NCBI GenBank assembly: GCA_043731625.1
Contig: JAYTIV010000073.1
Location: forward strand, 227 to 64,226
Source of the DNA: Flavobacterium sp.
Lineage (GTDB): Bacteria > Bacteroidota > Bacteroidia > Flavobacteriales > Flavobacteriaceae
Reading direction: 5' to 3'
Length of the DNA stretch: 64,000 nucleotides
Both the position numbers and the translations under genes were made by a program. Below are positions 37,263-53,623 of the stretch, piece after piece (position 1 is the stretch's first letter; each line of letters begins with the position of its first letter). The notes beneath the pieces are model-generated. The model ran no database searches and was not told where the DNA came from. It saw only the letters and a program-made list of their open reading frames with translations.

Positions 37263-37802
37263 ATGAAATCATTTGTTATGTTGCTAATTGTAATGGGGTT
37301 ATTTTTTCCTTCTTATTCTCAAGTTAAAAAAGAAGAAGGAAAAGATGAAGGTTTGAAAATGGAAGAATTACCCGAAATTGTAATTAAAAGAGCCGGAAAA
37401 GATTTCTCTATTTATTTGCCAGATAAAAACATTGATAAAAATGTTCGACAATTGGAAGAAAAATTTATTTCCTATGATCTCGGTAAAGATTATGAAGGAT
37501 ATGAAAACTATTTAGTTGTAATGGAACTACCAAAAAGTACTTTATCTGCAACTTATAATTCTGAAGGTAAATTAATCGATGTAGTTGAGAATTATGAAAA
37601 CGTAAGATTACCTGCAAAAGTTATTTACTCTGTTTATAAAGCCTATCCAGATTGGAAAATTGTAAAAGATAAATTTCTTTACACACAAAAAGACGGAGAT
37701 GTTATCAAGAAAGAATACAATCTTAAAATAAAAAAAGATAAAAAAACAAAAAATTTAACCGTTAATCCAGAAGGAACAATTCTTAAAGATTGTTGTGATT
37801 AA
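37263..37802 (+). CDS. Exported hypothetical protein (PepSY/BLIP-like beta fold), paralog 1
   Basis: Signal peptide; ELPEIVIK, Y.LGKDYEGYEN, LP.KVIY.VYKAYP.W shared with 38158-38697. Confidence 0.7.
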   Translation: MKSFVMLLIVMGLFFPSYSQVKKEEGKDEGLKMEELPEIVIKRAGKDFSIYLPDKNIDKNVRQLEEKFISYDLGKDYEGYENYLVVMELPKSTLSATYNSEGKLIDVVENYENVRLPAKVIYSVYKAYPDWKIVKDKFLYTQKDGDVIKKEYNLKIKKDKKTKNLTVNPEGTILKDCCD

Positions 37803-37818
37803 TTTAAAATAAATTATT

Positions 37819-37850
37819 AAAGCTTGAAATTAATTTTTCAAGCTTTTTTT
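37819..37850 (+). terminator. Intrinsic terminator
   Basis: AAAGCTTGAAA...TTTCAAGCTTT followed by Ts. Confidence 0.75.
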
Positions 37851-38157
37851 AATAAAGCTATTAAATTTATTTAATAACCTCGGAAATTTAAAATCATTTT
37901 AAAGAACAAGTTGCATTCAAAAATTACTTATTAACACATTAATAATATTAAGATTTAATTAACAAATACACTTTTTAAAATGATTAATTTTATAATAGAA
38001 TTACAATAAGCACAAACCTAAACAATTCTTTATTAATTTTTTAAAGTTAAATAATGGAGATGATTCAAATTAATAAAAAGGGGAAGCAATTATAAACCTT
38101 TATGATTTATCTGACTATTTAAAGTTCAATTTATATATTAATTTAATAAAGAATATC

Positions 38158-38697
38158 ATGAAAACATTTAGTATAATTTTAATTTTTCTGGGCATGTTAA
38201 CCACCTCATATTCGCAAGAAGAAATCAAGAATGATTTAGATAATGAAGTTCTAAAAATGGATGAGTTACCAGAAATTGTAATTAAAAGTGTTGGCAAAGA
38301 TTTTTCTGTGTATTTGCCTGATAAAAATCCAGACAATAAAGTGAAAAATTTACAGCAAAAGTTTATTGCTTACAATCTTGGAAAAGATTATGAAGGATAT
38401 GAGAATTTTTTAGTTGTTATGGAAACCAATGATGGCTCACTAACAGCTTCTTATAATTCAAATGGAAAATTGACTCGAGTAATTGAGAAATATCAAAACG
38501 TAAAACTACCAAGTAAAGTTATTTATGCTGTATATAAAGCTTATCCAGGATGGCAATTAGTAAATGATAAGTTTTTGTATACTCAAGAAGATGGCGATAT
38601 TATTAAAAAACAATATCAAATAAAGATTAAAAAAGATAATGAAACACGCAAATTAGTTATACATCCAAATGGAGATTTTATCAAAGACCTTAACTAA
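38158..38697 (+). CDS. Exported hypothetical protein (PepSY/BLIP-like beta fold), paralog 2
   Basis: 179 aa, collinear with 37263-37802. Confidence 0.7.
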   Translation: MKTFSIILIFLGMLTTSYSQEEIKNDLDNEVLKMDELPEIVIKSVGKDFSVYLPDKNPDNKVKNLQQKFIAYNLGKDYEGYENFLVVMETNDGSLTASYNSNGKLTRVIEKYQNVKLPSKVIYAVYKAYPGWQLVNDKFLYTQEDGDIIKKQYQIKIKKDNETRKLVIHPNGDFIKDLN

Positions 38698-38776: not shown

Positions 38777-39526
38777 TTAATACTTTCCATTTAATAATTC
38801 GCCTCCAATAATAGATTTAGTCTCCAATCCCAATTTTTTCATCATTTCAAAAGTGGTGCAAACTGCTGCAGATGTAACTGGAATGCCACATTCAGCTTGT
38901 ATTAGATCAATTGCTTCTAAAGATGGCATTTGTACACAAGCAGATACTACAAGTACATCTACATCTGTCAAATCTAATTGTTTGTATATTTCTAACAAAT
39001 TCATTGGGTTTTGATCCGCAACTTCTAGATTGTCAGGTATTTCCAATGCAATACTTTCTTTAACTTTTATTCCTTGGTTTTCTATATAATCCACAACCAT
39101 ATCGGTTAATGGTCTCATATAAGGTGTTATAATCGAAATTTGTTTGGCGCCAAGAACTTTCAAACCATTTATTAAAGCACCAGCTGATGTTACAATTGGT
39201 GTAGGGAAATCGTTGGCAATAGTTTCCTGATGCAAGTTTACTTCTGAAACACAATGATATCCTCTACCCATACTCATTATAGCAACCAAACACGCATAAC
39301 CCATAACATCAACGTGAGCATCTGATAATTCTTGAGCACATTTGAGACTCATTGCATCCATTGCTTTGAGTTCTTCTTTGGTTACTTTTTTCATTCGCAT
39401 TCTACTGGAATGAAACGTAAATCGTTCTGGTAAAATGGTTTCTCTGGCTCTAAAAATAGCTGGTATTTCGGTTTCCATTGTAACGTTTGATGATGGAACT
39501 ATTTGACCTATTCTGTATTTTTTCAT
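38777..39526 (-). CDS. maiA: Maleate cis-trans isomerase
   Basis: RIGQIVPSSN.TMETEIP; both catalytic cysteines present (YACLVAIM, SACVQMPSL). Confidence 0.9.
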   Translation of the reverse strand: MKKYRIGQIVPSSNVTMETEIPAIFRARETILPERFTFHSSRMRMKKVTKEELKAMDAMSLKCAQELSDAHVDVMGYACLVAIMSMGRGYHCVSEVNLHQETIANDFPTPIVTSAGALINGLKVLGAKQISIITPYMRPLTDMVVDYIENQGIKVKESIALEIPDNLEVADQNPMNLLEIYKQLDLTDVDVLVVSACVQMPSLEAIDLIQAECGIPVTSAAVCTTFEMMKKLGLETKSIIGGELLNGKY

Positions 39527-39528
39527 GT

Positions 39529-40437
39529 TTAAATTTCTTTAACCGTATTTACAATTGTACCAATTCCTTCAATTGTGGCTTTAATAACATCGCCATCATA
39601 TAGCCATTCTTGAGGATTTCTTCCTGCTCCAACTCCAGCTGGAGTTCCTGTAGCAATAATATCGCCAGGTTCTATAGTAAAAACGGTACTTAAATCTTCT
39701 ATTAATTCATTGATATTGAAAAGTAAAAATTTAGTATTCGAATTTTGCTTTTCAATACTATTTACAGTTAACGATAAATTCAAATTATGTGGATTTTTAA
39801 TTTCGTCTTTGGTGACTAAAATTGGTCCCATAGGAGCAAAAGTGTCTTGACCTTTAGATACAATCCATTGTCCTTCACGACGACAATCGCGAGCTGAGAT
39901 ATCATTGATTATCGTGTATCCAAAAACATAATCCATTGCATCTGCTTTAGAAACATATTTTCCTTTTTTTCCAATAACTATTGCCAATTCTACTTCCCAG
40001 TCTAATTGTTGTGTAAGTTTGGTGTTTTTAATTATTTCGGTATTGGTTGCTGTAACTGTTGTTGGTGGTTTGGAGAAAATAATTGGTTTTTGAGGCAATT
40101 TTCCTGTTGTGTCCAATGTTCTTGCACTTTCGGCAACGTGTTCGGTATAGTTTAATCCAATTCCGATTATGTTTTTTCTGGGTTTAGGAATAGGAGCAAG
40201 GAAGATTATTTCATCCATTTCATAGGCAATTTCATCCATTAATCCTTGTTCAGTATCAGCAATCATATCGTTGAGTTCTTCGACTAATTCATAACCCATA
40301 TCAATCAATTCTAACATTGAAGAAGGTAATGGAAAATTGGATATTTCTCCAAAATCTTCCATATCTATGACTTGATTGTTGTGGATAAAACCTAATCTTG
40401 GTTCTGAATCTTTTGTTTTGTAGGTAAGTAGTTTCAT
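39529..40437 (-). CDS. Fumarylacetoacetate hydrolase family acylpyruvate hydrolase
   Basis: IGLNY..H, LDWEVEL, NDISARD, SKGQDTF, TGTPAGVG. Confidence 0.9.
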   Translation of the reverse strand: MKLLTYKTKDSEPRLGFIHNNQVIDMEDFGEISNFPLPSSMLELIDMGYELVEELNDMIADTEQGLMDEIAYEMDEIIFLAPIPKPRKNIIGIGLNYTEHVAESARTLDTTGKLPQKPIIFSKPPTTVTATNTEIIKNTKLTQQLDWEVELAIVIGKKGKYVSKADAMDYVFGYTIINDISARDCRREGQWIVSKGQDTFAPMGPILVTKDEIKNPHNLNLSLTVNSIEKQNSNTKFLLFNINELIEDLSTVFTIEPGDIIATGTPAGVGAGRNPQEWLYDGDVIKATIEGIGTIVNTVKEI

Positions 40438-40521
40438 TTTATGCTGAATTTATTTCAGTATCTTTTTAATTGTCAATAAGATACATTTTTATTTAAATTT
40501 TTATTTTTGAATTTGTAATTG

Positions 40522-41628
40522 TTACTGCAATTGATGACCATTATTTTCTTCTAATTCTCTTGATTGAAATAATCCCAATTTTTCGATTACGGGTAAATCG
40601 TTGAATGAAAACAAACACGCTTCATCAGAATCGGATACATTATGATGTTCGTGCCAAGCCCAAGAAGGAACGCAGAAAATATCTCGTTCTTTCCAATCCA
40701 ATCGTTGTCCGTTTATGATAGAAAAACCTTTGCCTTTGGCGCATTGATACACAAACGAACCCGTATGTCTGTGTGCTTTTCCTTTAAATCCTGCTGGTAA
40801 TAATTGCATTGATGCTCCCATTGTTTGCATCACGTGACCACCAGTTAACGGATTAGAATAATGCATCAATATTCCGTCAAAACTATTAATTTCATTAACT
40901 TTTAATGCTTCAAGTAAAGCAGGATAAACCGTTTTCCAAGAATATTTAAACAATGGAGAATAGGGTTTGTCCCAAACTTTATCTGCAGGAATTAAACCGG
41001 CACAACCATAAGTTATTGGTGAATAATTTACTGGGAAATCCAAGGGTTGTTTGCCATCATAAACAGCATAATCATTGGCTTCTAAAGCATTGACTAAGGG
41101 AATATCTAAGCCGTCTTGCCAAATACACGTTTTACCGTTAGCATCAACACCGTGTTCGTGCCAAGTAGAATTAGGAGTTATTACAAAGTCATTGACTTCA
41201 AAGGTTATTTTATTTCCGTCAACTACTGTATAACCACCTTCGCCTTCCATAATAAAACGTAAAGCCGATGCTTTGTGTCGATGAGCGGAAGTACTTTCGC
41301 CAGGTTTTGTGACTTGAATACCCGTATACAACCAACCTACAGCTGCTGAAACGTCTTTACGATTGTCGTTAACCAAATATACTACGCGTCTTCCTGCTTG
41401 TTCTGGAGTGACAAGTTCTGATGATTTTAAAACTAAGTTTCTTAAATCTTCATATTTCCAAAGCATCTGAACCGATGAGCTTCTTGGTTCCCAAGGTTCA
41501 ATATCATTGGCAACTGTCCATAAAGCACCAGCGCCAAGAGCTTCTAATTCTTTGTAATAGGCGATTAACTCAGGAGAATCTTGAACTCTTGCGCGACCAA
41601 TTTGGTCATCTGAAAATTTATCTTCCAT
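40522..41628 (-). CDS. Gentisate 1,2-dioxygenase family bicupin ring-cleavage enzyme
   Basis: RRVVYLVN, HRH..SALRF, WHEHG, DGLDIP; second cupin HRHT and VPSW.WHEH. Confidence 0.9.
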   Translation of the reverse strand: MEDKFSDDQIGRARVQDSPELIAYYKELEALGAGALWTVANDIEPWEPRSSSVQMLWKYEDLRNLVLKSSELVTPEQAGRRVVYLVNDNRKDVSAAVGWLYTGIQVTKPGESTSAHRHKASALRFIMEGEGGYTVVDGNKITFEVNDFVITPNSTWHEHGVDANGKTCIWQDGLDIPLVNALEANDYAVYDGKQPLDFPVNYSPITYGCAGLIPADKVWDKPYSPLFKYSWKTVYPALLEALKVNEINSFDGILMHYSNPLTGGHVMQTMGASMQLLPAGFKGKAHRHTGSFVYQCAKGKGFSIINGQRLDWKERDIFCVPSWAWHEHHNVSDSDEACLFSFNDLPVIEKLGLFQSRELEENNGHQLQ

Positions 41629-41643
41629 AATTTTTTAATTTTC

Positions 41644-41707
41644 AAACCATTAAGGTATTAAGCTTCATTAAGTTTTGACTTAATTTTTCTTAATACCTTA
41701 ATGGTTT
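41644..41707. repeat. REP-like palindrome, ACCATTAAG family (copy 2)
   Basis: Perfect 19-bp arms AAACCATTAAGGTATTAAG / CTTAATACCTTAATGGTTT. Confidence 0.75.
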
Positions 41708-42689
41708 AATTTTTCTTATTGAACTCCTCGTGATTATCAATAAATGTAATTTTTCGTGTTGGTGCAATATTTACGCGTAAATCAAAAATATCAAATCTAT
41801 TATAATGCCCTAAAATGTCGTGCATTTGTTTGGGTTGTATGCATTTTTCTAAATCAATATCGGCATAAATCATTCCTTCATCATCAATTAAAGGCGTTCC
41901 TATAACTGCTCCATTTGGACCAATAAATCCAGAAAAAGCAGAGTTTTTTCGAGTTAAAAGTTCATCAATATTTGGTACATCTTCACGCAAGGCGTCTTTA
42001 ATTTCTTGAGAAATGGTAGAGCACGATACAATGGTAAATAATTTTCCTTCAAATGAATGGGCACAAGCGCGAATTTTTATGGCTTCTGCCATATCATAAT
42101 CTGGTGGCGCAACAGGAAGCGAAATATAATTGGCAATGTGAATTAATTCGCTTTGAGAAAGTAAGGTGAATCGTGCCAAAGTATTGGTGTTTTCGCCACA
42201 AGCCAAAGTTCCAATTGGTCCAATTTCAGTATTATATACTTTGAGAGAAGAACCATCACCGGATGTCCAAGTGAGTTTTTCTGCCCAAGTTGGGACTAAT
42301 TTTCGGTGTTTGCCAATTAGATTTCCATTGTTATCGATGATTAAATTGGTATTGTAAATTTCGCCATAACTATCACCACGTTCATTGATTCCTATAACAA
42401 TATGAATGTTATTGTCTTTTGCCGCTTGAAATAAGGGTTTCATTGCTTCATCTGTAACAGCAACTGAATTTTTATACAATTGTTCGTACCATTTACTACC
42501 TTGAATAGGAGTCATAATCCAATTCCAATACGGATAACCTGCCACAAATACTTCAGGAAAAGCAATAAGTTGTGCTCCGTTTTGACTGGCTTCTACGATG
42601 AAAGAAATGGCTTTTTCAACCGTTTTTTCTACATTTAGAAAAATAGGTGATGTTTGTACGGTTGCTGCTTTGAATTTTTTGAAATCCAT
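41706..42689 (-). CDS. Nitrilase/carbon-nitrogen hydrolase
   Basis: Glu-Lys-Cys triad: FPEVF, HRKLVPT, LACGEN; GHYNRFDIF. Confidence 0.9.
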   Translation of the reverse strand: MDFKKFKAATVQTSPIFLNVEKTVEKAISFIVEASQNGAQLIAFPEVFVAGYPYWNWIMTPIQGSKWYEQLYKNSVAVTDEAMKPLFQAAKDNNIHIVIGINERGDSYGEIYNTNLIIDNNGNLIGKHRKLVPTWAEKLTWTSGDGSSLKVYNTEIGPIGTLACGENTNTLARFTLLSQSELIHIANYISLPVAPPDYDMAEAIKIRACAHSFEGKLFTIVSCSTISQEIKDALREDVPNIDELLTRKNSAFSGFIGPNGAVIGTPLIDDEGMIYADIDLEKCIQPKQMHDILGHYNRFDIFDLRVNIAPTRKITFIDNHEEFNKKN

Positions 42690-42753
42690 ATTTTTTTTTA
42701 TTACGAATTGAGAATTACTAATTATGAATTGAAAACGAGAATTAACTCGTAAT

Positions 42754-43176
42754 TCATAATATGTAATTCATAATTTTTATTTTCATTTCTTCAGAAAAGG
42801 CTTCGGCTTTAATTGTATTTCTATCTTCTGCAATGGCAACATTTACCAGTGTTACTTCGCCTTCAAGGCAGGGTTTTCCTTGTTGGTCTTCAAATTTAAA
42901 TCCGCAAATTATAGAAGAACTACCTAGTTGATTGACCCATAATTTTTTTGTTAGTATTTCACCTAATCGAGCTGCTTTTTTGAATTGTACTTTTAAATCA
43001 ACAGTTGGAATTCCGTTGGTTTCGTGAATTTTAGAAAACGGTCTGTCAAGTGCTTCTTCAAACCAATCTTCGACTAAATCGTTGAGCATTTCTAGAAAAC
43101 GAGGATAGAATACAATTCCTGCATAATCAACGTGTTTGAAACGAATTTTTTCTTGTTTGGTGTATGGTTGGTTCAT
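42754..43176 (-). CDS. Acyl-CoA thioesterase (4HBT/YbgC hotdog fold)
   Basis: IRFKHVDYAGIVFYPRF. Confidence 0.9.
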   Translation of the reverse strand: MNQPYTKQEKIRFKHVDYAGIVFYPRFLEMLNDLVEDWFEEALDRPFSKIHETNGIPTVDLKVQFKKAARLGEILTKKLWVNQLGSSSIICGFKFEDQQGKPCLEGEVTLVNVAIAEDRNTIKAEAFSEEMKIKIMNYIL

Positions 43177-43295
43177 TATTCTTTTTTAGCCACGAATTTC
43201 ACGAATTGGCTCGAATTTTTATTTTATTATTATTTTAAAAAATTTAATTGATTGTAACCAATCTTTAAATTAAACACCTACCATTGCTGATAAGA

Positions 43296-43397
43296 TTAGC
43301 CCCGATAGCAGTGGAAATCCTTTTTATACCTGTCAGGTTTCAAAAACCTGACAGGTATAAAAAGATTGCAACGAATAGCGGGAAATAGCTTCTAAAA
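43296..43397 (+). repeat. Dispersed structured repeat, Flavo-1 RNA-like (copy 2) with nested palindrome
   Basis: Same flanks as 32442-32520; central stem is TTTTTATACCTGTCAGGTTT-CAA-AAACCTGACAGGTATAAAAA (43321-43363). Confidence 0.6.
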
Positions 43398-43509
43398 CTT
43401 TTCTAGACTCGCTCTTTTCCAAAAGTACAAAAATTCTTTTGGTAACTCGGGGAATGTTTGTGCAAAAGTTTCGCTTTGATTTCTTTGTACCAATTGTGTA
43501 TTCTGTATG

Positions 43510-45090
43510 TTATTTTAATTTAAATCGTTGTATTTTTCCTGTTTCGGTTTTGGGTAATTCTTCTACAAAATATAAAAGTCTTGGATATTTATAAGGTGCT
43601 GCTACTTCTTTGAACCATTGTTGTATTTCTTTTGATAATTGATTAGAAGCTATATTATAATCTTTTAGAACTACATAGGCACAAACCAACATTCCGCGTT
43701 CTTCATCTGGCAAACCAACAACTGCACATTCTAAAACCAAATCGTGAGTGAGGAGAACACTTTCTACCTCAATAGCTGCAATATTATAACCTGAAGAAAT
43801 AATCATATCGTCACCACGAGCCACAAACCAAAAATAACCATCTTCGTCTTGACGAAAAATATCGCCTGTAATGTTCCAACCATTTTCGACATATTCTTTT
43901 TGTTTGTCAATTCGGTTTAAGTATTTACATCCTGTAATGCCACGAACGGCTAATCTTCCAGCACTATTTCTTTCAACTTCATTTCCGTTATTGTCAATAA
44001 TTTTGGCTTCATAACCAATCACTGCTTTTCCTGTTGCGCCAGGTTTCATATTCTCTTCATTAGATGATATAAAAATATGAAGCATTTCGGTAGCACCAAT
44101 TCCGTCAATTATTTTTAAACCTGTTGCTTCATACCAATCTTGCCAAACCTTTAACGGTAAGGTTTCGCCAGCTGAAACGCATTTTCTTAAACTCGAAATA
44201 TCAAAATCATTTACTTTGGAAGTAATGATTCGCCAAGCAGTTGGAGCTGTAAAACAAATGGTTATTTTATAGTCTTGAATGGCTTGAAGCAATAATTCTG
44301 GGCTTGGTTTTTCGATTAAAAAAGTAGATGCGCCAAAATACATGGGAAACAGAACCAAACCTCCAAGTCCAAATGTAAAGCCGATTGGTGGACTTCCAGT
44401 GAAAATATCATTAGAAGTTGGTTGCAATGAATATTGGGGAAAAGCTTCACAAATATTTAAAATATCTTTATGAAAATGCGCTGTCATTTTGGGTAATCCT
44501 GTTGTTCCTGATGTAAAGCCAATTAGAGCAACATTATCTGTTTTTGATTTATAATTTGTAAAAGTTTTGGGTTTTGTTTCCATTAATTCTTCTAATTGAG
44601 AATTGCCATAGAAACAAGCCATCTTTAAAAAATTGGATTGTACTAAATGAATTTCTTCTTCTAAATCTATATCACAAAAACAATGTGAAATTTCGGCACA
44701 ATCAATAATTGTGGATAATTCTTTTGAACGAAGTAATGGCATTGTGGCAACTACTATTCCACCAGCTTTGAGAATGGCATACCAACACGCCACCATCATA
44801 GGGTTATTGGCAGAACGAATAAGCACTCTATTTCCTGATTGCAATCCTAAATCATCTACTAAAACGTGTGCAATTTGATTGGCTTTTTCAAATAAATCTT
44901 GATAAGTCCAAGTTGTTTCAAAAGTTTGGATACAAATAGCATTTCCATTTCCATTTGAAATATGAAAATCTAATAATCGTTCGACACAGTTGAGCATTTC
45001 TGGATGTTGAAACTGAGGCAAATCTGAATATACATACTCAGGTTGTAAGTCTAAATCTGGTAAATTGATTTGAGCAAAATTATCAATCAT
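43510..45090 (-). CDS. 2-aminobenzoate/benzoate-CoA ligase family AMP-binding enzyme
   Basis: FTSGTTGLPK, SPPIGFTFGLGG, SAGETLP, DGIGATEMLHIFIS, PKTETGKIQRF. Confidence 0.85.
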   Translation of the reverse strand: MIDNFAQINLPDLDLQPEYVYSDLPQFQHPEMLNCVERLLDFHISNGNGNAICIQTFETTWTYQDLFEKANQIAHVLVDDLGLQSGNRVLIRSANNPMMVACWYAILKAGGIVVATMPLLRSKELSTIIDCAEISHCFCDIDLEEEIHLVQSNFLKMACFYGNSQLEELMETKPKTFTNYKSKTDNVALIGFTSGTTGLPKMTAHFHKDILNICEAFPQYSLQPTSNDIFTGSPPIGFTFGLGGLVLFPMYFGASTFLIEKPSPELLLQAIQDYKITICFTAPTAWRIITSKVNDFDISSLRKCVSAGETLPLKVWQDWYEATGLKIIDGIGATEMLHIFISSNEENMKPGATGKAVIGYEAKIIDNNGNEVERNSAGRLAVRGITGCKYLNRIDKQKEYVENGWNITGDIFRQDEDGYFWFVARGDDMIISSGYNIAAIEVESVLLTHDLVLECAVVGLPDEERGMLVCAYVVLKDYNIASNQLSKEIQQWFKEVAAPYKYPRLLYFVEELPKTETGKIQRFKLK

Positions 45091-45108
45091 TTAATTTCAA
45101 ATTAGGAA

Positions 45109-47406
45109 TTATTTATGACTTTCAGGTTTTAACGCTTTCTTCATTCCTTCTTTTTCTTTTCTTTCTGCTGCTTTTAATGGATATAAATGGGATATTCCAG
45201 CTATGTACTGATTCGGAATATCATCTGGTTTAAATTGTTCGTAGGCTTGAGCATTTCGTACAAAATTCGGATCTAGCAATAATGGTCTTCCCAGCGCAAC
45301 CAAATCAGCTCTACCATTCAATAGAATCGTATTTACTTGATCAATGTCTTGAATGTAACCTGTTGTTATTGTTGGGATATGCGTTTCATTTCGAACCAAA
45401 TCTGAAAATGGAGTTTGCCACATTCTACCTATTTGTGGTTGCTGATTTTCGACCGTATTTCCGGTAGAAACGTTTATAATATCTGCTCCAGCATTTTTGA
45501 AAGTATTTGCAATTAATACTACTTCTTCTTCAGTAATACCATTATCTGCCCAATCTGAAGCTGAAATTCTTACCGACATAGGTTTGTTTTCATTAAAAAC
45601 TTCACGCATTGCCACAAAAACCTGCAAGGGAAATTTTAGTCTATTTTCAATGCTTCCGCCATATTTGTCTTTTCGAATGTTGGTCAATGGAGATAGAAAA
45701 GAAGCTAATAGAAATCCGTGATGTGCTTGCAATTCAATCATATCAAATCCTGCTTCATCTGCATTTATAGTTGCTTGAACAAATTCTGATAAAATGGTAT
45801 TCATATCGGCAACCGTCATTTGTTTGGGTGCTTTCATCGCATTTGAAAAAGGAATTGGTGAAGCCGAAATCAAATCCCAACCATTTTTTACTAAAGGTAT
45901 ATTAGATCCAACAGTTGGCACGTTTACAGAACCTTTTCTGCCGGAATGTCCTAATTGAATTCCGATTTTAGATTTACTATTTAAATGAACATATTTAGTA
46001 ATTTTTTTCCATTTAAGTGTTTGCTCTTCAGACCAAATTCCAGCACAACCTAAAGTGATTCTTCCTTTTTTGGAAATGGCGGTCATCTCTGTCAAAATCA
46101 ATCCTACACCACCAGTTGCTCGAGCACCATAATGCACCAAATGCCAATTGTTTACCAATCCGTTTTCGGCAGAATATTGTCCCATAGGCGACATGACAAT
46201 TCTGTTTTTAAGATGCATACCTCTCAAAACTAAAGGAGTAAAAGCAGCAGGTGTTTTTACTTTGAAATTACCAATATTACAATTGAATTCGGTTAATACT
46301 TTTTCTGTAAAAGTAGCATCACGAAGTGCTAAATTTTCATAAGTTACCTTTTTAGAACGCGTCATCACACCAAATGCAAATTGCATAAAATCGTGTTGCA
46401 TATGACGATCCATATGTTCAAACCAATCCAGTGAGACAATGGCTGCGTGCTGAATCATTTCTACACGATTACGACGTAGTTTTTCGTAGTTTTCAAATAC
46501 TTTGGTTTTATTGGTTTTATATTCTAGTATACTATCTGCAAGTGCAATGGCACATTCCATCGCTAGTTTAGTTCCAGAACCTATAGAATAGTGAGCGGTT
46601 GCTTTTGCATCACCTAATAACACAATGTTATTATGAAACCATTTTTGGTTGGTAACATGAGGAAATTGACGCCAATGTGATTTATTGGAAATTAAGGCAT
46701 GTCCGTCTAATTCCTCAGCAAAAATTTCTGCTAATTTTAGAATGGTATCCTCTTCTTTTGAAGTTTCGAACCCAATATTCTCCCACGTTTTTTCTGAACA
46801 TTCAAATATCCAAGTACTCATTCCTTTTTGATATTGATAGGAATGGGCAACAATGGTTCCGTGTGGTGTTGATCTAAAAAAATAAGTAAAGGCATCTAGT
46901 GGTTTTGTTGAACCCAACCAAACAAATTTGTTTTTTTGCAATGTGATTTTAGTGCCAAAATTTTTGGCATATTTTTCTCGAATTGGACTATTAATTCCAT
47001 CACATGCAATAATATAATCGGCATCTTTAAACTGTGAAACATCGTCAATGTTGTGTTCAAAATGTAGTTTTACACCTTCTTCAACACAACGTTGTTGGAG
47101 TAATTGAAGTAATGTTTTTCGGGAACAACCACAAAAACCATTTCCTGTAATCCTTACAACTTCTCCATCACGAGCCACATCAAGGTCATCCCAATAGGCA
47201 AATTTACTTCTAATTAATTCATATGATTTTGGATCTCTAGAAAGAAATTCGCTCAATGTTTCGTCTGAAAAAACAACACCAAACCCAAAACTATCATCTG
47301 CTTTGTTCTGTTCATAAATATCTATTTCACAAGACGGCATTGCTTTTTTTAATAAAATCGAAAAGTATAAACCTCCAGGACCACCACCAATTACAGTTAT
47401 TTTCAT
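45109..47406 (-). CDS. Anthraniloyl-CoA monooxygenase / salicylyl-CoA 5-hydroxylase with fused old-yellow-enzyme domain
   Basis: GGGPGGLY, FGFGVVFSD, GDAKATAHYSIGSGTKLA; OYE domain NRIVMSPM, QLGHSGRK, R.DKYGGS.ENR; active-site segment is ELQAHHGFLL. Confidence 0.9.
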   Translation of the reverse strand: MKITVIGGGPGGLYFSILLKKAMPSCEIDIYEQNKADDSFGFGVVFSDETLSEFLSRDPKSYELIRSKFAYWDDLDVARDGEVVRITGNGFCGCSRKTLLQLLQQRCVEEGVKLHFEHNIDDVSQFKDADYIIACDGINSPIREKYAKNFGTKITLQKNKFVWLGSTKPLDAFTYFFRSTPHGTIVAHSYQYQKGMSTWIFECSEKTWENIGFETSKEEDTILKLAEIFAEELDGHALISNKSHWRQFPHVTNQKWFHNNIVLLGDAKATAHYSIGSGTKLAMECAIALADSILEYKTNKTKVFENYEKLRRNRVEMIQHAAIVSLDWFEHMDRHMQHDFMQFAFGVMTRSKKVTYENLALRDATFTEKVLTEFNCNIGNFKVKTPAAFTPLVLRGMHLKNRIVMSPMGQYSAENGLVNNWHLVHYGARATGGVGLILTEMTAISKKGRITLGCAGIWSEEQTLKWKKITKYVHLNSKSKIGIQLGHSGRKGSVNVPTVGSNIPLVKNGWDLISASPIPFSNAMKAPKQMTVADMNTILSEFVQATINADEAGFDMIELQAHHGFLLASFLSPLTNIRKDKYGGSIENRLKFPLQVFVAMREVFNENKPMSVRISASDWADNGITEEEVVLIANTFKNAGADIINVSTGNTVENQQPQIGRMWQTPFSDLVRNETHIPTITTGYIQDIDQVNTILLNGRADLVALGRPLLLDPNFVRNAQAYEQFKPDDIPNQYIAGISHLYPLKAAERKEKEGMKKALKPESHK

Positions 47407-50151: not shown

Positions 50152-52668
50152 TTAATAATCAAAAATATGTTCAATAGTTTCATTTTTTGAATTGGTATTT
50201 TTAATAAAAGGCAATAGTTTGTTGACATTTAAAATATAAACATCTCGTATTTGTTTATCGTTTGAAACAATATTAGATTGATATAATAAACCTTGCTCAT
50301 TATATATAATCTGATTTTCTTTATTTTTAATCACCGAAATAACAATTTCATCATTACCAGATATTTCATATATAGTGATATTTTGAGAAGCTAATTTTTT
50401 TAAAACCTCTGTAAAAACTCCCCATCTTGTGATTGAAATAATCATTTTATTGGAATCTTCTTTTAGAATTTTTATGTCTTTATTCTTTTTTAAAATTGGA
50501 TTATTTGATACTATTAAAAATATAGATGTTTCAGGTTTTTCGTATGATGCATTAGCTGCACACTGAATCATTTGAGCATAAAAGGCTTTAAAAGAATATT
50601 CGAAAGTAAAAAATAGCGTTCTTTCCCATTTTCTGATAGTGCTGCAATTATTATCATTTTTGGTGTTCCAAACTTTACTTATCCAAGGTAAAAACTTAAA
50701 TTCATACCATGCTTTTTGATAAATAAAATTACTATAATCTCTTTGTGCGGCAATTATTACTTTTTCATTTTTTGATATTTCTTTTTCTGTTAGAAATGAA
50801 AAAAGTCTACCCATAGTATTTTCATATACCATCTTAAAACCATATTCCATAGTAAGGCTAACTCCTATAACTTGAAGCATTATTTTATATTCATTGTTTT
50901 CAGGATAAGCATTGGAAACTAATTTTAATGATCGATCATACAATTTCCAAAATTCATCAATTGATTGATAGAATGGGAAGTCTGAAGGATTTTTACCACT
51001 TTCCAGAAAATCAGCATATTCTTTTGGATTAAAAACCAAATACCATTCTGGAACGGTAAGTATTGTTTGCTCTTCTGCTCTATAATATCCCTTTATATCA
51101 TTTTTATAATGCATTAATTTATCTAAGCTATAGGGATTGTATTTGTCTAATAATTTATTAGTAAATCGTTGTTTTGGATCTAATTTGTTTTTTAAATCAA
51201 AATAATACTTACTTTTTGGATACCCTTTTTCAAATTGCTCGATGGATGCATGTGTTTGATAGGGAAGGTACCAAGTACCATGTTCACTCAAAATGGCATT
51301 TGTCATGGCTACTGTCCAATTTTTCACACCATCCTTTGCAATTTTATCTGTCTTTTGCTTATAATAAACTACAAATGCAAATACTTCTTTATTTGCCCAG
51401 GATAGATAACTTTCGTTATCTGGTAATGCATGACGAAGCGAAACATTCATAACATTTACGTTATACTTTTGAAAAATATCTTTCATTTTTGGGATAAATG
51501 TATTGATATTTTCAACTGGTATAAAATACTCTTCTAATACATAGGTTTCTTCCTCACGTGAAGTAGGCTCTAGTTCTTTTACATCATAACTTGCTTCTTT
51601 ATTCCTCCATCTTACTATTTCAGAACTAAAAAAAATGGGGTCAATAATATTCTTTCGAATCCATTTTCCAGAATTTCCCCAAGATACTAATGTAGCTAAG
51701 TTAGCTTCTAACCAATACTTTTCGTTTTCTGGTTGTAATCTATCTAAATCTGTTAATTCTTTTGATGATTTTTTCCAAAAAACACTTCTAATTCTATCAT
51801 AATTAGGCGGATAGAGATCTCCATTTTGAAACACAACATCTTTATTATTTCTAATGTTTTTATTAAAATAAGAATTGTAATCTTCTATATTTAATACCGT
51901 ATTTGCTCTTTCTACTTTTGTGTTTTCTGTCAGTTGAAGTGTCGCTTCTGCAATTACACCAATTCCACCATAACCTCCAATTGCTGCCCTAAAAATCTCT
52001 TGATTTTTCTCACGAGAAGCATCTATTATTTCTCCTGAAGCAGTAATGATTTTTAAAGCAATAACAGATGAAATTATAGGTCCATGACCAATATAACGTC
52101 CATGGCAATTAACTGATATTGCACCGCCAACTGTAAAGTTAGAATACGTTTGCATAATTTTTATTGACAAATTATGAGGGTCAATTATTTTTTGTAAATC
52201 ACGCCATCTTATTCCAGCTTGAACGGTTACTTGTTTTTTTACTGTATCTAATTTGATAACTTGATTAAAAGATCTCATGTCAATATGCAAACTGTTTTCA
52301 AATGCAGTTTGTCCACCCATACTATATTTTCCACCACCTATAGAAATTGGTCCCGTTGTTGTTTGAATTGCTACAACAATTTCATTAATAGTTTTGGGTT
52401 TAATGATTTTATTAACCTGAATTGGATTGAGTTGTGTAATATCATTAATGTATTTATTCTGAAGTGATTTATTGTAGTTTTTATCTCCTGAAAGCAAAAT
52501 TAAAACAATGATATATATTGCAAATAACAGCAACCCATAAAACAGAATTGCATATCGTTTCTTGCTATTAATTCTATGAAATACTTTTTTTGAGATTCTA
52601 AAAATTAATTGAAAAATTTTAATAATAAAGTTTAAAAGTGATTTTATAAAACGGAGTATTTTATTCAT
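50152..52668 (-). CDS. Membrane-anchored FAD-binding oxidoreductase (VAO/DprE1-like) fused to an unassigned C-terminal domain
   Basis: GGGKYSMGGQ, TVGGAISVNCHG, IGGYGGIG, YLPYQ, LDP..RF.N; about 300 extra aa beginning near EQTILTVPEW. Confidence 0.8.
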   Translation of the reverse strand: MNKILRFIKSLLNFIIKIFQLIFRISKKVFHRINSKKRYAILFYGLLLFAIYIIVLILLSGDKNYNKSLQNKYINDITQLNPIQVNKIIKPKTINEIVVAIQTTTGPISIGGGKYSMGGQTAFENSLHIDMRSFNQVIKLDTVKKQVTVQAGIRWRDLQKIIDPHNLSIKIMQTYSNFTVGGAISVNCHGRYIGHGPIISSVIALKIITASGEIIDASREKNQEIFRAAIGGYGGIGVIAEATLQLTENTKVERANTVLNIEDYNSYFNKNIRNNKDVVFQNGDLYPPNYDRIRSVFWKKSSKELTDLDRLQPENEKYWLEANLATLVSWGNSGKWIRKNIIDPIFFSSEIVRWRNKEASYDVKELEPTSREEETYVLEEYFIPVENINTFIPKMKDIFQKYNVNVMNVSLRHALPDNESYLSWANKEVFAFVVYYKQKTDKIAKDGVKNWTVAMTNAILSEHGTWYLPYQTHASIEQFEKGYPKSKYYFDLKNKLDPKQRFTNKLLDKYNPYSLDKLMHYKNDIKGYYRAEEQTILTVPEWYLVFNPKEYADFLESGKNPSDFPFYQSIDEFWKLYDRSLKLVSNAYPENNEYKIMLQVIGVSLTMEYGFKMVYENTMGRLFSFLTEKEISKNEKVIIAAQRDYSNFIYQKAWYEFKFLPWISKVWNTKNDNNCSTIRKWERTLFFTFEYSFKAFYAQMIQCAANASYEKPETSIFLIVSNNPILKKNKDIKILKEDSNKMIISITRWGVFTEVLKKLASQNITIYEISGNDEIVISVIKNKENQIIYNEQGLLYQSNIVSNDKQIRDVYILNVNKLLPFIKNTNSKNETIEHIFDY

Positions 52669-52681
52669 GAAAATAATTAAA

Positions 52682-53623
52682 TTATATTTTTGTAAAAACC
52701 ATCAAAGCATTTTTTGTTGGGTCACCGTCTTGAAAAAGTGTTTTTTTATTGAATTTGAATCCGATTTTTTCTACAAAGTCACAAATAAAATCTAAAGCAT
52801 AAAAATTACGAATCTCTTTATTATTATATTCCCATGATTGATTTGTACCCATATTAAAGACATCATGAGCCAAAGCTACTAGCGTTTTTTGTTCTTCGGT
52901 ATTACAATCATGATCTCTCAATATTAGTTTTCCACCAACTCTCATCGTGTCTCTTATAGAGGAAATAAAAGGTATACGCAAGTCTAATGGACAGTGATGA
53001 AAACCAATATAAATAGTTACCAAATCTAAACTTTTTGCAGGAATGCTATCAGAATATCTTGTTGCATAATTAGCTAAAGGAATGTAGGTTGCTCCTTTAC
53101 TAATTTGGCCTCTATCAATCATTTCTGTGACAGAATAGCCTGGTTCTTTACCATCTGCATAGTATCTTTTTCCTTTTATATTTACTTTTTCTTCAAGATA
53201 ATCTAAATATCTGCCAGAAGAACCAATTTCTAAATATCCATAATATGTTGTTCCTTCTCCTAAAAGTTGTAGGGTTTCTTTTGCCATTTCATCTTTCTGG
53301 TTTTGTAAAGCAGGCAATTGATATCTAAGGCTAGATAGAGTAGGCGTTATAGCATCTAATTTTGATTGTGCTTCTCTATATATTTCTTGATCATTATTTT
53401 TTTGAATAGTAGTATCATTTATGAGTTTATGAAACTGGCTTTCAGGATAAACATTAAAAACATGTTTTAAAAATTTATAAAACTCATTTTTAAGTTTCTG
53501 ATTGTTATAAATAAATTTGAAATTACTTTTAGTAGCATTATAAGAATGAAACAAATTAATAGAAAACATTTGAGTAGAAACTAAAAATAAAAATGATGAC
53601 TTAATAAAATTTCTTCTTCTCAT
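52682..53623 (-). CDS. Class I SAM-dependent methyltransferase with twin-arginine-like N-terminus
   Basis: YLEIGSSG, GFHH, GGKLILRDHD; MRRRNFIK start. Confidence 0.75.
   Translation of the reverse strand: MRRRNFIKSSFLFLVSTQMFSINLFHSYNATKSNFKFIYNNQKLKNEFYKFLKHVFNVYPESQFHKLINDTTIQKNNDQEIYREAQSKLDAITPTLSSLRYQLPALQNQKDEMAKETLQLLGEGTTYYGYLEIGSSGRYLDYLEEKVNIKGKRYYADGKEPGYSVTEMIDRGQISKGATYIPLANYATRYSDSIPAKSLDLVTIYIGFHHCPLDLRIPFISSIRDTMRVGGKLILRDHDCNTEEQKTLVALAHDVFNMGTNQSWEYNNKEIRNFYALDFICDFVEKIGFKFNKKTLFQDGDPTKNALMVFTKI

Follow-up and report, generated by a model that had tools for sequence, protein, structure and literature searches.

A seven-gene cluster in a 64,000-nucleotide stretch of Flavobacterium sp. 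DNA (GenBank assembly GCA_043731625.1, contig JAYTIV010000073.1; the whole stretch is called the window here) raises the question of which aromatic compound it degrades, and what a nitrilase does among its genes. The seven intact, co-oriented open reading frames (ORFs) on the minus strand exactly span positions 38777-47406 and are separated by gaps of 2-333 bp. In order of transcription they encode a fusion of an aryl-CoA monooxygenase with an Old Yellow Enzyme (OYE) domain, an aryl-CoA ligase, a thioesterase, a nitrilase-superfamily hydrolase, a gentisate-type bicupin dioxygenase, an FAH-family hydrolase and a maleate isomerase (Table 1). ORFs, lengths and family matches agree with an initial annotation made from the sequence alone. 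That annotation had also remarked on the lack of beta-oxidation genes and of a glutathione (GSH)-dependent isomerase, and this held more widely: the window cluster contains no beta-oxidation genes, these genes occurred at none of 60 flavobacterial loci (enoyl-CoA hydratase near 0/60), and the 88%-complete genome gave no match to a MaiA-type isomerase.

We propose, with a probability of about 0.6, that the cluster encodes a route from anthranilate via 5-hydroxyanthranilate and an amide ring-cleavage product to pyruvate, ammonia and fumarate. The ligase would convert anthranilate to anthraniloyl-CoA, the fusion would hydroxylate this at C5 without reduction to 5-hydroxyanthraniloyl-CoA, and the thioesterase would release 5-hydroxyanthranilate. 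Cleavage between C1 and C2 by the dioxygenase, with the nitrogen still attached, would give the amide of maleylpyruvate, which the FAH protein would split to pyruvate and maleamate. The nitrilase would then hydrolyze maleamate to maleate and ammonia, and the isomerase would convert maleate to fumarate. We infer every substrate in this scheme, the loss of reductase activity, the amide as ring product and the action of the FAH protein ahead of the nitrilase, an order that could be reversed.

Loci were collected around relatives of the dioxygenase in GTDB genomes (n = 541), of which the best 80 were used; these share 84-98% identity with the window enzyme and belong to Flavobacterium, Paenimyroides and other Bacteroidota. 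Sixty of the 80 are well-flanked flavobacterial loci, with at least 9 kb upstream and at least 4 kb downstream. Co-occurrence of the seven genes, which the initial annotation had put forward as a check, was found in 59 of these 60. The sole exception (L037) retains the dioxygenase, FAH and isomerase genes only. Flavobacterium aquatile LMG 4008 (L010) is among the carriers. The seven genes thus behave as a single unit in an arrangement far beyond chance. The nitrilase, rather than being usually missing from related clusters, is present in 59/60 flavobacterial loci and in all 11 metagenome loci that bear the monooxygenase. In an even sample of 150 Flavobacterium genomes, 68 were marked alike by the nitrilase, the dioxygenase and the monooxygenase domain; the carriers have genomes of 2.0-4.3 Mb, and several of the listed non-carriers exceed 5 Mb. 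Among 400 Bacteroidota genomes there were three matches, every one in Flavobacterium. For comparison outside the flavobacteria we used 16 plasmid loci and the best 80 of at least 546 metagenome loci, with linkage counts for the latter taken from the 34 loci that have 5 kb on each side.

The lower module, made up of dioxygenase, FAH hydrolase, nitrilase and isomerase, is fed by different gene sets in other bacteria, and these provide the strongest evidence for the substrate. Loci of the Burkholderiales type carry IorAB instead of the ligase, retain both thioesterase and fusion, and are often extended by a cyclase-family gene, a thiolase or a CoA ligase. In the auxin-degrading iad locus, as described in PMC9613470 and PMC12852158, IorAB corresponds to IadAB and the route runs from isatin via isatinate to anthranilate. 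The cyclase-family gene is IadI-like, the equivalence of IorAB and iad genes being drawn by family name, and IorAB would convert isatinate to anthraniloyl-CoA. In three other loci (L087:3734-12881, L116:4253-13960 and L173:5931-14643) genes for tryptophan 2,3-dioxygenase (TDO) and kynureninase lie directly upstream of the four genes of the module, and these loci lack hydroxylase and CoA genes; L116 and L173 encode, in addition, a permease for amino acids and an alpha/beta hydrolase. The three kynureninases score above their model cut-off and the TDOs below theirs (303, 310 and 369 versus 391). These scores fit a variant substrate such as 5-hydroxytryptophan, and the loci are candidate 5-hydroxytryptophan catabolic operons. 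Their dioxygenases occupy three different positions in the dioxygenase tree, that of L116 being the sister of the enzyme from an IorAB locus (L115).

A further type of feeder was found on plasmids of roseobacters and Shinella (L081:1670-12826, L101, L097 and L098), where the module is accompanied by IorAB, a thioesterase and two MarR regulators and the fusion is not nearby. Two of these loci add an omega-aminotransferase and an aldehyde dehydrogenase, a set that suggests an indole already hydroxylated, such as serotonin or 5-hydroxyindoleacetate, as starting compound. The feeders share an ortho-aminobenzoate product, of which 5-hydroxyanthranilate is the simplest, and the comparative sequence evidence favors anthranilate over salicylate. 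Two impressions about the Ruegeria pomeroyi locus had to be dropped. One of the two MarR proteins beside its module is not the auxin-binding 3CDH protein but 3BOQ, and the organism does not lack the monooxygenase, as a canonical abm cluster lies 330 kb away on its megaplasmid. No match to the monooxygenase was found on the Sagittula and Aminobacter plasmids, a search of the plasmids only and not the chromosomes.

The ligase and fusion resemble those of the abm cluster of Azoarcus (Aromatoleum) evansii, in which a 2-aminobenzoate-CoA ligase together with a 2-aminobenzoyl-CoA monooxygenase/reductase precedes beta-oxidation (PMC4539516, PMC3534580). Among solved structures the window ligase matched anthranilate-CoA ligase 4WV3 best (285 bits, versus 217 for benzoate-CoA ligase), and its identity to the 11 ligases from abm-type clusters, some of which adjoin TDO and kynureninase genes, is 41-50%. 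The protein is likely an anthranilate-CoA ligase. The host genome carries TDO, kynureninase and 3-HAO. Since kynureninase turns kynurenine into anthranilate, the host has an internal source of this compound, and the cell's own kynurenine pathway is the likely supply. The 88%-complete assembly gave no match to a Rieske ring hydroxylase, IorAB or the cyclase.

The fusion protein scored 992.6 bits on PRK08255, below the curated cut-off of 1078. The database name of this family is salicylyl-CoA 5-hydroxylase, but the model is blind to the substrate because an enzyme in abm context scores 1316. When the OYE domain was aligned on TsOYE (3HF3), the His/His/Tyr triad was found to read Gln560/His563/Phe565. 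At least one triad residue is replaced in 90 of 90 dioxygenase-linked fusions (68 flavobacterial and 22 others), defined as full-length proteins encoded within 8 kb of a dioxygenase of the clade described below. The triad is intact in all 12 fusions outside dioxygenase loci, 10 of which lie with beta-oxidation genes while two are actinobacterial. In a hydroxylase-domain tree of 34 rows (quick LG+G4 run with a long-branch warning, labels taken from gene context) the linked fusions split into three groups, and a single clade was rejected with a p-AU of 1.2e-6. This tree included 6 of 69 flavobacterial rows, excluded six other linked rows and was made after an earlier FastTree had been seen. A single gain with two losses could also account for the three triad changes. 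When NADH limits the reduction, the canonical enzyme makes 5-hydroxyanthraniloyl-CoA (PMC3534580). The linked fusions appear to have fixed this aromatic side reaction with loss of reductase activity, and the window protein is likely an anthraniloyl-CoA 5-hydroxylase without reductase activity. Two actinobacterial fusions with intact triad (L112:3088-10367 and L113:3544-17674) have no beta-oxidation genes around them. Their neighbors are FAH, a small cupin, one or more thioesterases, RidA and PaaX, beside TDO-kynureninase or IorAB-cyclase genes, and these sets possibly encode another lower pathway.

The thioesterase likely frees 5-hydroxyanthranilate from CoA. We considered its presence as a sign of aromatic release and rejected this, since abm beta-oxidation clusters carry a thioesterase too and the gene does not discriminate. 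Taken with the feeder sets, the ligase and triad data lend genomic and sequence support to the earlier proposal of anthranilate as input with 5-hydroxylation in the absence of reduction.

The dioxygenase matched the R. pomeroyi structure 3BU7 (GDOsp) far better (521 bits, 60% identity) than E. coli GDO (222) or SDO (167). 3BU7 is the same protein as the megaplasmid gene product in L081, gtdA-2/SPOA0115, and SPOA0115 carries the annotation gtdA-2 in R. pomeroyi (PMC3390766). Plasmid homologues fall into 19 at 55-65% identity and a remainder at no more than 41.5% (best 50 of 58). A clade including 3BU7 received a support of 100, with one long-branched outgroup row (P0008) falling inside it. The window enzyme possesses the three-His iron site, equivalents of Arg83, Gln108, Arg127, His162 and Asp174, and, as in the rest of the GDOsp clade, a second His site in the C-terminal cupin. 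It retains the carboxylate and 5-hydroxyl residues R80, Y101, Q105, R124, H159 and D172, with residue roles and the active-site Met46 taken from the work on SDO (PMC10306065). Glu (Glu44) stands at the position of Met46 in all 176 sequences from the loci; of 105 representatives farther away, 12 share it, three of these being clade fragments. A Glu at this position was absent from all seed patterns used; two other invariant clade positions were part of seed patterns and were not counted as evidence. Scores lay below the cut-offs for canonical gentisate 1,2-dioxygenase (TIGR02272, 301 versus 442) and 5-aminosalicylate 1,2-dioxygenase MabB (NF049978, 257 versus 650), and the top 120 homologues are named gentisate dioxygenase, cupin protein or NADPH dehydrogenase in databases. 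The window enzyme is likely a 5-hydroxyanthranilate 1,2-dioxygenase.

The FAH gene lies beside the dioxygenase gene in 60/60 flavobacterial, 31/34 metagenome and 16/16 plasmid loci. A solved maleylpyruvate hydrolase scores just 103 bits against the FAH protein, which likely releases pyruvate. The isomerase matched 4FQ7 over its full length (E = 2e-94) with both catalytic cysteines aligned. Where it lies beside the dioxygenase, a nitrilase is there too (59/60 flavobacterial, 15/15 metagenome and 10/10 plasmid loci). In several Burkholderiales-type loci (L100:15946-16614, L115 and L116) a distant second racemase-like gene follows the maleate isomerase.

The nitrilase-superfamily protein has an intact Glu46-Lys130-Cys164 triad. 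Among solved structures, nitrilases and cyanide dihydratases come nearest to it (E 1e-62 to 1e-36), with other carbon-nitrogen hydrolases at about 1e-12, and the protein scored below the Nit6803 model cut-off (228 versus 503). All 11 plasmid homologues with at least 57% identity are encoded within 1.5 kb of a GDOsp-clade dioxygenase; the next two, at 53% and 48%, are not beside a dioxygenase. A nitrilase is present in 14 of the 16 plasmid loci, L085 being interrupted by transposases and L096 having none nearby. Among the 34 metagenome loci, 18 have a nitrilase of the window type and five have a second type that is only 30% identical; both types resemble true nitrilases. A nitrilase occurs in 11 of 11 metagenome loci with the fusion, and one of the first type in 15 of 15 with the isomerase. 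This linkage supports, on genomic and sequence grounds, the earlier idea of nitrogen removal, as a step that goes with dioxygenases of this clade, and the protein likely releases the ring nitrogen as ammonia. An alpha/beta hydrolase is a doubtful stand-in for the nitrilase, given its formamidase-like position ahead of TDO in L116 and L173. A NicX homologue is joined to the module in L086, L161, L182 and L189 (E = 6e-58 for L086). As the NicX pathway yields maleamate, this link would speak in favor of an amide product. An acyl-CoA-dehydrogenase-fold flavoprotein also joins the module in L086 (9989-19420), L161 and L182; the first two of these loci further contain an alpha/beta hydrolase and a glutamine-synthetase-like gene.

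Several observations weigh against the proposed route. True nitrilases generally hydrolyze amides poorly, so that a protein of this type sits badly with a maleamate amidase role. A nitrilase within 9 kb is missing from 11 of the 34 metagenome loci, of which seven also lack an alpha/beta hydrolase, and three metagenome loci have the dioxygenase without FAH; the NicX-linked loci L182 and L189 have no nitrilase next to the dioxygenase. The ligase has a low identity to characterized enzymes, which cannot fix its substrate. Some OYEs stay active after a Tyr-to-Phe change, and the altered triad would fit a salicylyl-CoA hydroxylase equally. The related genomes are not independent, so the counts show linkage rather than repeated origin. 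The chief finding against the route is that the only solved member of the dioxygenase clade, GDOsp, was published as a gentisate 1,2-dioxygenase (PMC10306065, PMC13280823). Gentisate turnover would be expected anyway from an enzyme acting on such a close analogue as 5-hydroxyanthranilate.

The poor match between a true nitrilase and an amide substrate motivates a nitrile as ring product, which is unlikely but fares best among the alternatives. Cleavage of 5-hydroxyanthranilate would then give 3-cyanoacryloyl-pyruvate, followed by pyruvate and cis-3-cyanoacrylate, from which the nitrilase would form maleate and ammonia. In this scheme Glu44 would act as the base while the enolate is expelled from a seven-membered imidate intermediate, and nitrile formation by the GDOsp clade would account for the recruitment of two unrelated true nitrilases. 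The position of the hydrolase near nitrilases and cyanide dihydratases, far above other carbon-nitrogen hydrolases, agrees with this, as do its replacement in other loci by a second nitrilase-type protein only 30% identical, the invariant active-site Glu, and the lack of an isochorismatase-type amidase among 144 neighboring proteins scanned. Yet the NicX-linked loci indicate maleamate, and L194 has an AS-family amidase upstream although the nitrilase is present as well. Moreover, the ring intermediate is normally opened by iron-bound hydroxide, and we know of no enzymatic precedent for nitrile-forming cleavage.

Loss of the nitrogen before ring cleavage is quite improbable. Glu-Lys-Cys hydrolases attack a nitrile or amide carbon and not an electron-rich aryl amine, which the nitrilase would have to do if 5-hydroxyanthranilate were deaminated to gentisate, a plain gentisate dioxygenase then acted, and the FAH protein gave maleate and pyruvate. 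Such a route was reported for Nocardia in 1968 and is cited in PMC4539516; the solved clade member is named a gentisate dioxygenase, the gentisate-binding residues are kept, and the flavin-reductase-like gene upstream of the cluster could serve a quinone-imine redox step. It leaves unexplained the clade's own invariant Glu, the gtdA-2 naming in R. pomeroyi, and the canonical gentisate set that lies beside the module in L153 and L180.

A salicylate pathway of the sdg/ceh type, running through salicylyl-CoA, gentisyl-CoA, gentisate, maleylpyruvate and maleate to fumarate, would suit six of the seven genes, the altered triad and the database name of the fusion, and the SdgC reaction is cited in PMC13215587. 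The nitrilase would be accessory or would supply a nitrile or amide precursor. We regard this as very unlikely: the nitrilase, in 59/60 loci and tracking the dioxygenase even without CoA genes, is left unexplained, the IorAB-cyclase and TDO-kynureninase feeders cannot make salicylate, and enzymes from an abm beta-oxidation setting next to TDO go under the same database name. Least probable is that the same chemistry acts on a different ortho-aminobenzoate (such as a halogenated or methylated anthranilate) or on an aza-aromatic (such as a pyridine carboxylate). NicX-linked loci and loci without a recognizable feeder do show that the module is reused, but its being kept in 45% of the genus sample and in small (2-4 Mb) freshwater genomes suggests a common metabolite, and the host genome has kynureninase.

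The route from anthranilate via 5-hydroxyanthranilate and an amide can be placed among known systems as a hybrid, with upper steps of the abm/sdg kind, cleavage of the gentisate type and an ending through maleamate, each part having a known relative. By its sequences the locus is not a member of the abm, canonical GDO, MabB or nic systems. With abm it shares the homologous ligase and fusion (the latter 39-48% identical to those of abm-type clusters), but the reductase triad is altered, and a ring-cleaving dioxygenase module takes the place of the short-chain dehydrogenase/reductase, hydratase, acyl-CoA dehydrogenase, RidA and MarR. The sdg genes of Streptomyces WA46, which have an equivalent in the ceh genes of Rhizobium, likewise encode a ligase, a 5-hydroxylase, a thioesterase and a gentisate-type dioxygenase, a likeness at the level of families; the window differs in its tightly linked nitrilase and maleate isomerase, its dioxygenase clade and the aminobenzoate feeders found elsewhere.

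GDOsp of R. pomeroyi DSS-3 belongs to the same clade as the window dioxygenase, with two metal sites and the same four-gene lower module, but is published as a gentisate enzyme and has IorAB, a thioesterase, an omega-aminotransferase, an aldehyde dehydrogenase and a nitrilase as neighbors. This context suggests 5-hydroxyanthranilate, possibly from a 5-hydroxyindole, as its natural substrate. The nicotinate/nicotine maleamate pathway (NicX, NicD, NicF, NicE/Iso) resembles the window route in the proposed maleamate end and in the isomerase, which is close to Iso of P. putida S16, whereas the nitrilase-type protein would replace NicF. The cluster contains no NicX, NicD or isochorismatase-type NicF, and the assembly gave no NicX-like match.

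The proteobacterial modules are flanked by genes for IorAB, a cyclase, a thioesterase, a thiolase, an SDR and MarR like those of the iad locus known from Variovorax and Bradyrhizobium (PMC9613470); the window carries no iad genes. The published iad locus ends at anthranilate, and neither a monooxygenase nor a ring-cleaving cupin, a nitrilase or an isomerase is listed for it in PMC9613470 (supplement files 6 and 13 aside). A 2015 review (PMC4539516) distinguishes four aerobic anthranilate routes, one of them, from 1968, via 5-hydroxyanthranilate and gentisate. This is the route of Nocardia opaca (Cain 1968, cited in PMC4539516), which shares the 5-hydroxyanthranilate intermediate but loses the nitrogen before cleavage rather than after it; PMC4539516 cites no genes for it. 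The initial annotation knew of no genetic description of the hybrid route, and our literature searches likewise found none for the gene set or for nitrogen-retaining cleavage, with subscription journals mostly outside their coverage. The anthranilate route is likely undescribed.

Table 1. Features of the cluster and its immediate surroundings, in order of transcription (window positions).
Feature	Length	Position	Strand	Basis or occurrence
Flavin-reductase-like protein (PF01613)	201 aa	47920..48525	-	upstream in 56/60 well-flanked flavobacterial loci
AHSA1/SRPBCC protein, optional insert	151 aa	47461..47916	-	found in 19/88 loci
AbmA/SdgC-type aryl-CoA 5-monooxygenase + Old Yellow Enzyme domain fusion	765 aa	45109..47406	-	PRK08255, TsOYE mapping
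Aryl-CoA ligase	526 aa	43510..45090	-	nearest solved structure 4WV3
Perfect inverted repeat in the ligase-thioesterase gap (43177-43509)	21 bp, 3-nt loop	43320..43364		sequence
4HBT-type hotdog thioesterase	140 aa	42754..43176	-	family match
Nitrilase-superfamily hydrolase, true-nitrilase type	327 aa	41706..42689	-	triad Glu46-Lys130-Cys164
Bicupin ring-cleaving dioxygenase, GDOsp clade	368 aa	40522..41628	-	3BU7 match, clade tree
FAH-family acylpyruvate hydrolase	302 aa	39529..40437	-	family match, dioxygenase linkage
Maleate cis-trans isomerase	249 aa	38777..39526	-	4FQ7 match

The flavin-reductase-like gene is probably an eighth member of the operon and the first to be transcribed, and a relative about 35% identical lies beside the module in some proteobacterial loci. 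A role for this gene as maleyl isomerase was considered, but its paralogue has no telling neighbors. The 35-nt core of the inverted repeat occurs at a single place in the assembly when up to three mismatches are allowed. Promoter and terminator scans of the sequence gave results at chance level (51 versus 48.8 and 4 versus 5.4). The operon gaps of relatives often carry unrelated inserts, such as an FMN-binding glutamate-synthase-family gene in 33/88 loci. In the window, a tandem pair of similar 179-aa proteins, probably exported and with no Pfam match, is encoded on the plus strand (37263-38697) and converges on the operon end. On the other side (50152-53623) lies the gene for an 838-aa FAD-linked oxidase (ALO-like) with a long unmatched C-terminal part, adjoined by one for a protein of 313 aa that may bear an export signal.

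If the proposed route is correct, it would be a fifth aerobic route for anthranilate beside the four of the 2015 review, and genes would be assigned to the 5-hydroxyanthranilate intermediate reported in 1968. A crystallized 'gentisate dioxygenase' would be re-assigned together with about 2,400 similar protein clusters (E ≤ 1e-100; most likely clade members), and a bifunctional enzyme would have lost its reductase triad on three separate recruitments. Should a nitrile be the ring product instead, a large group of orphan bacterial nitrilases would gain a natural substrate, and new oxygenase chemistry would stand at the junction of tryptophan, auxin and 5-hydroxyindole breakdown. The nitrogen-retaining anthranilate route likely also completes auxin and hydroxytryptophan breakdown in other bacteria: it would provide many of the plant and marine bacteria that degrade auxin with a lower pathway below anthranilate, the point at which the published route stops, and would indicate unstudied routes for 5-hydroxytryptophan and serotonin. 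For Flavobacterium itself, the cluster would mark tryptophan ring catabolism in about 45% of the sampled species.

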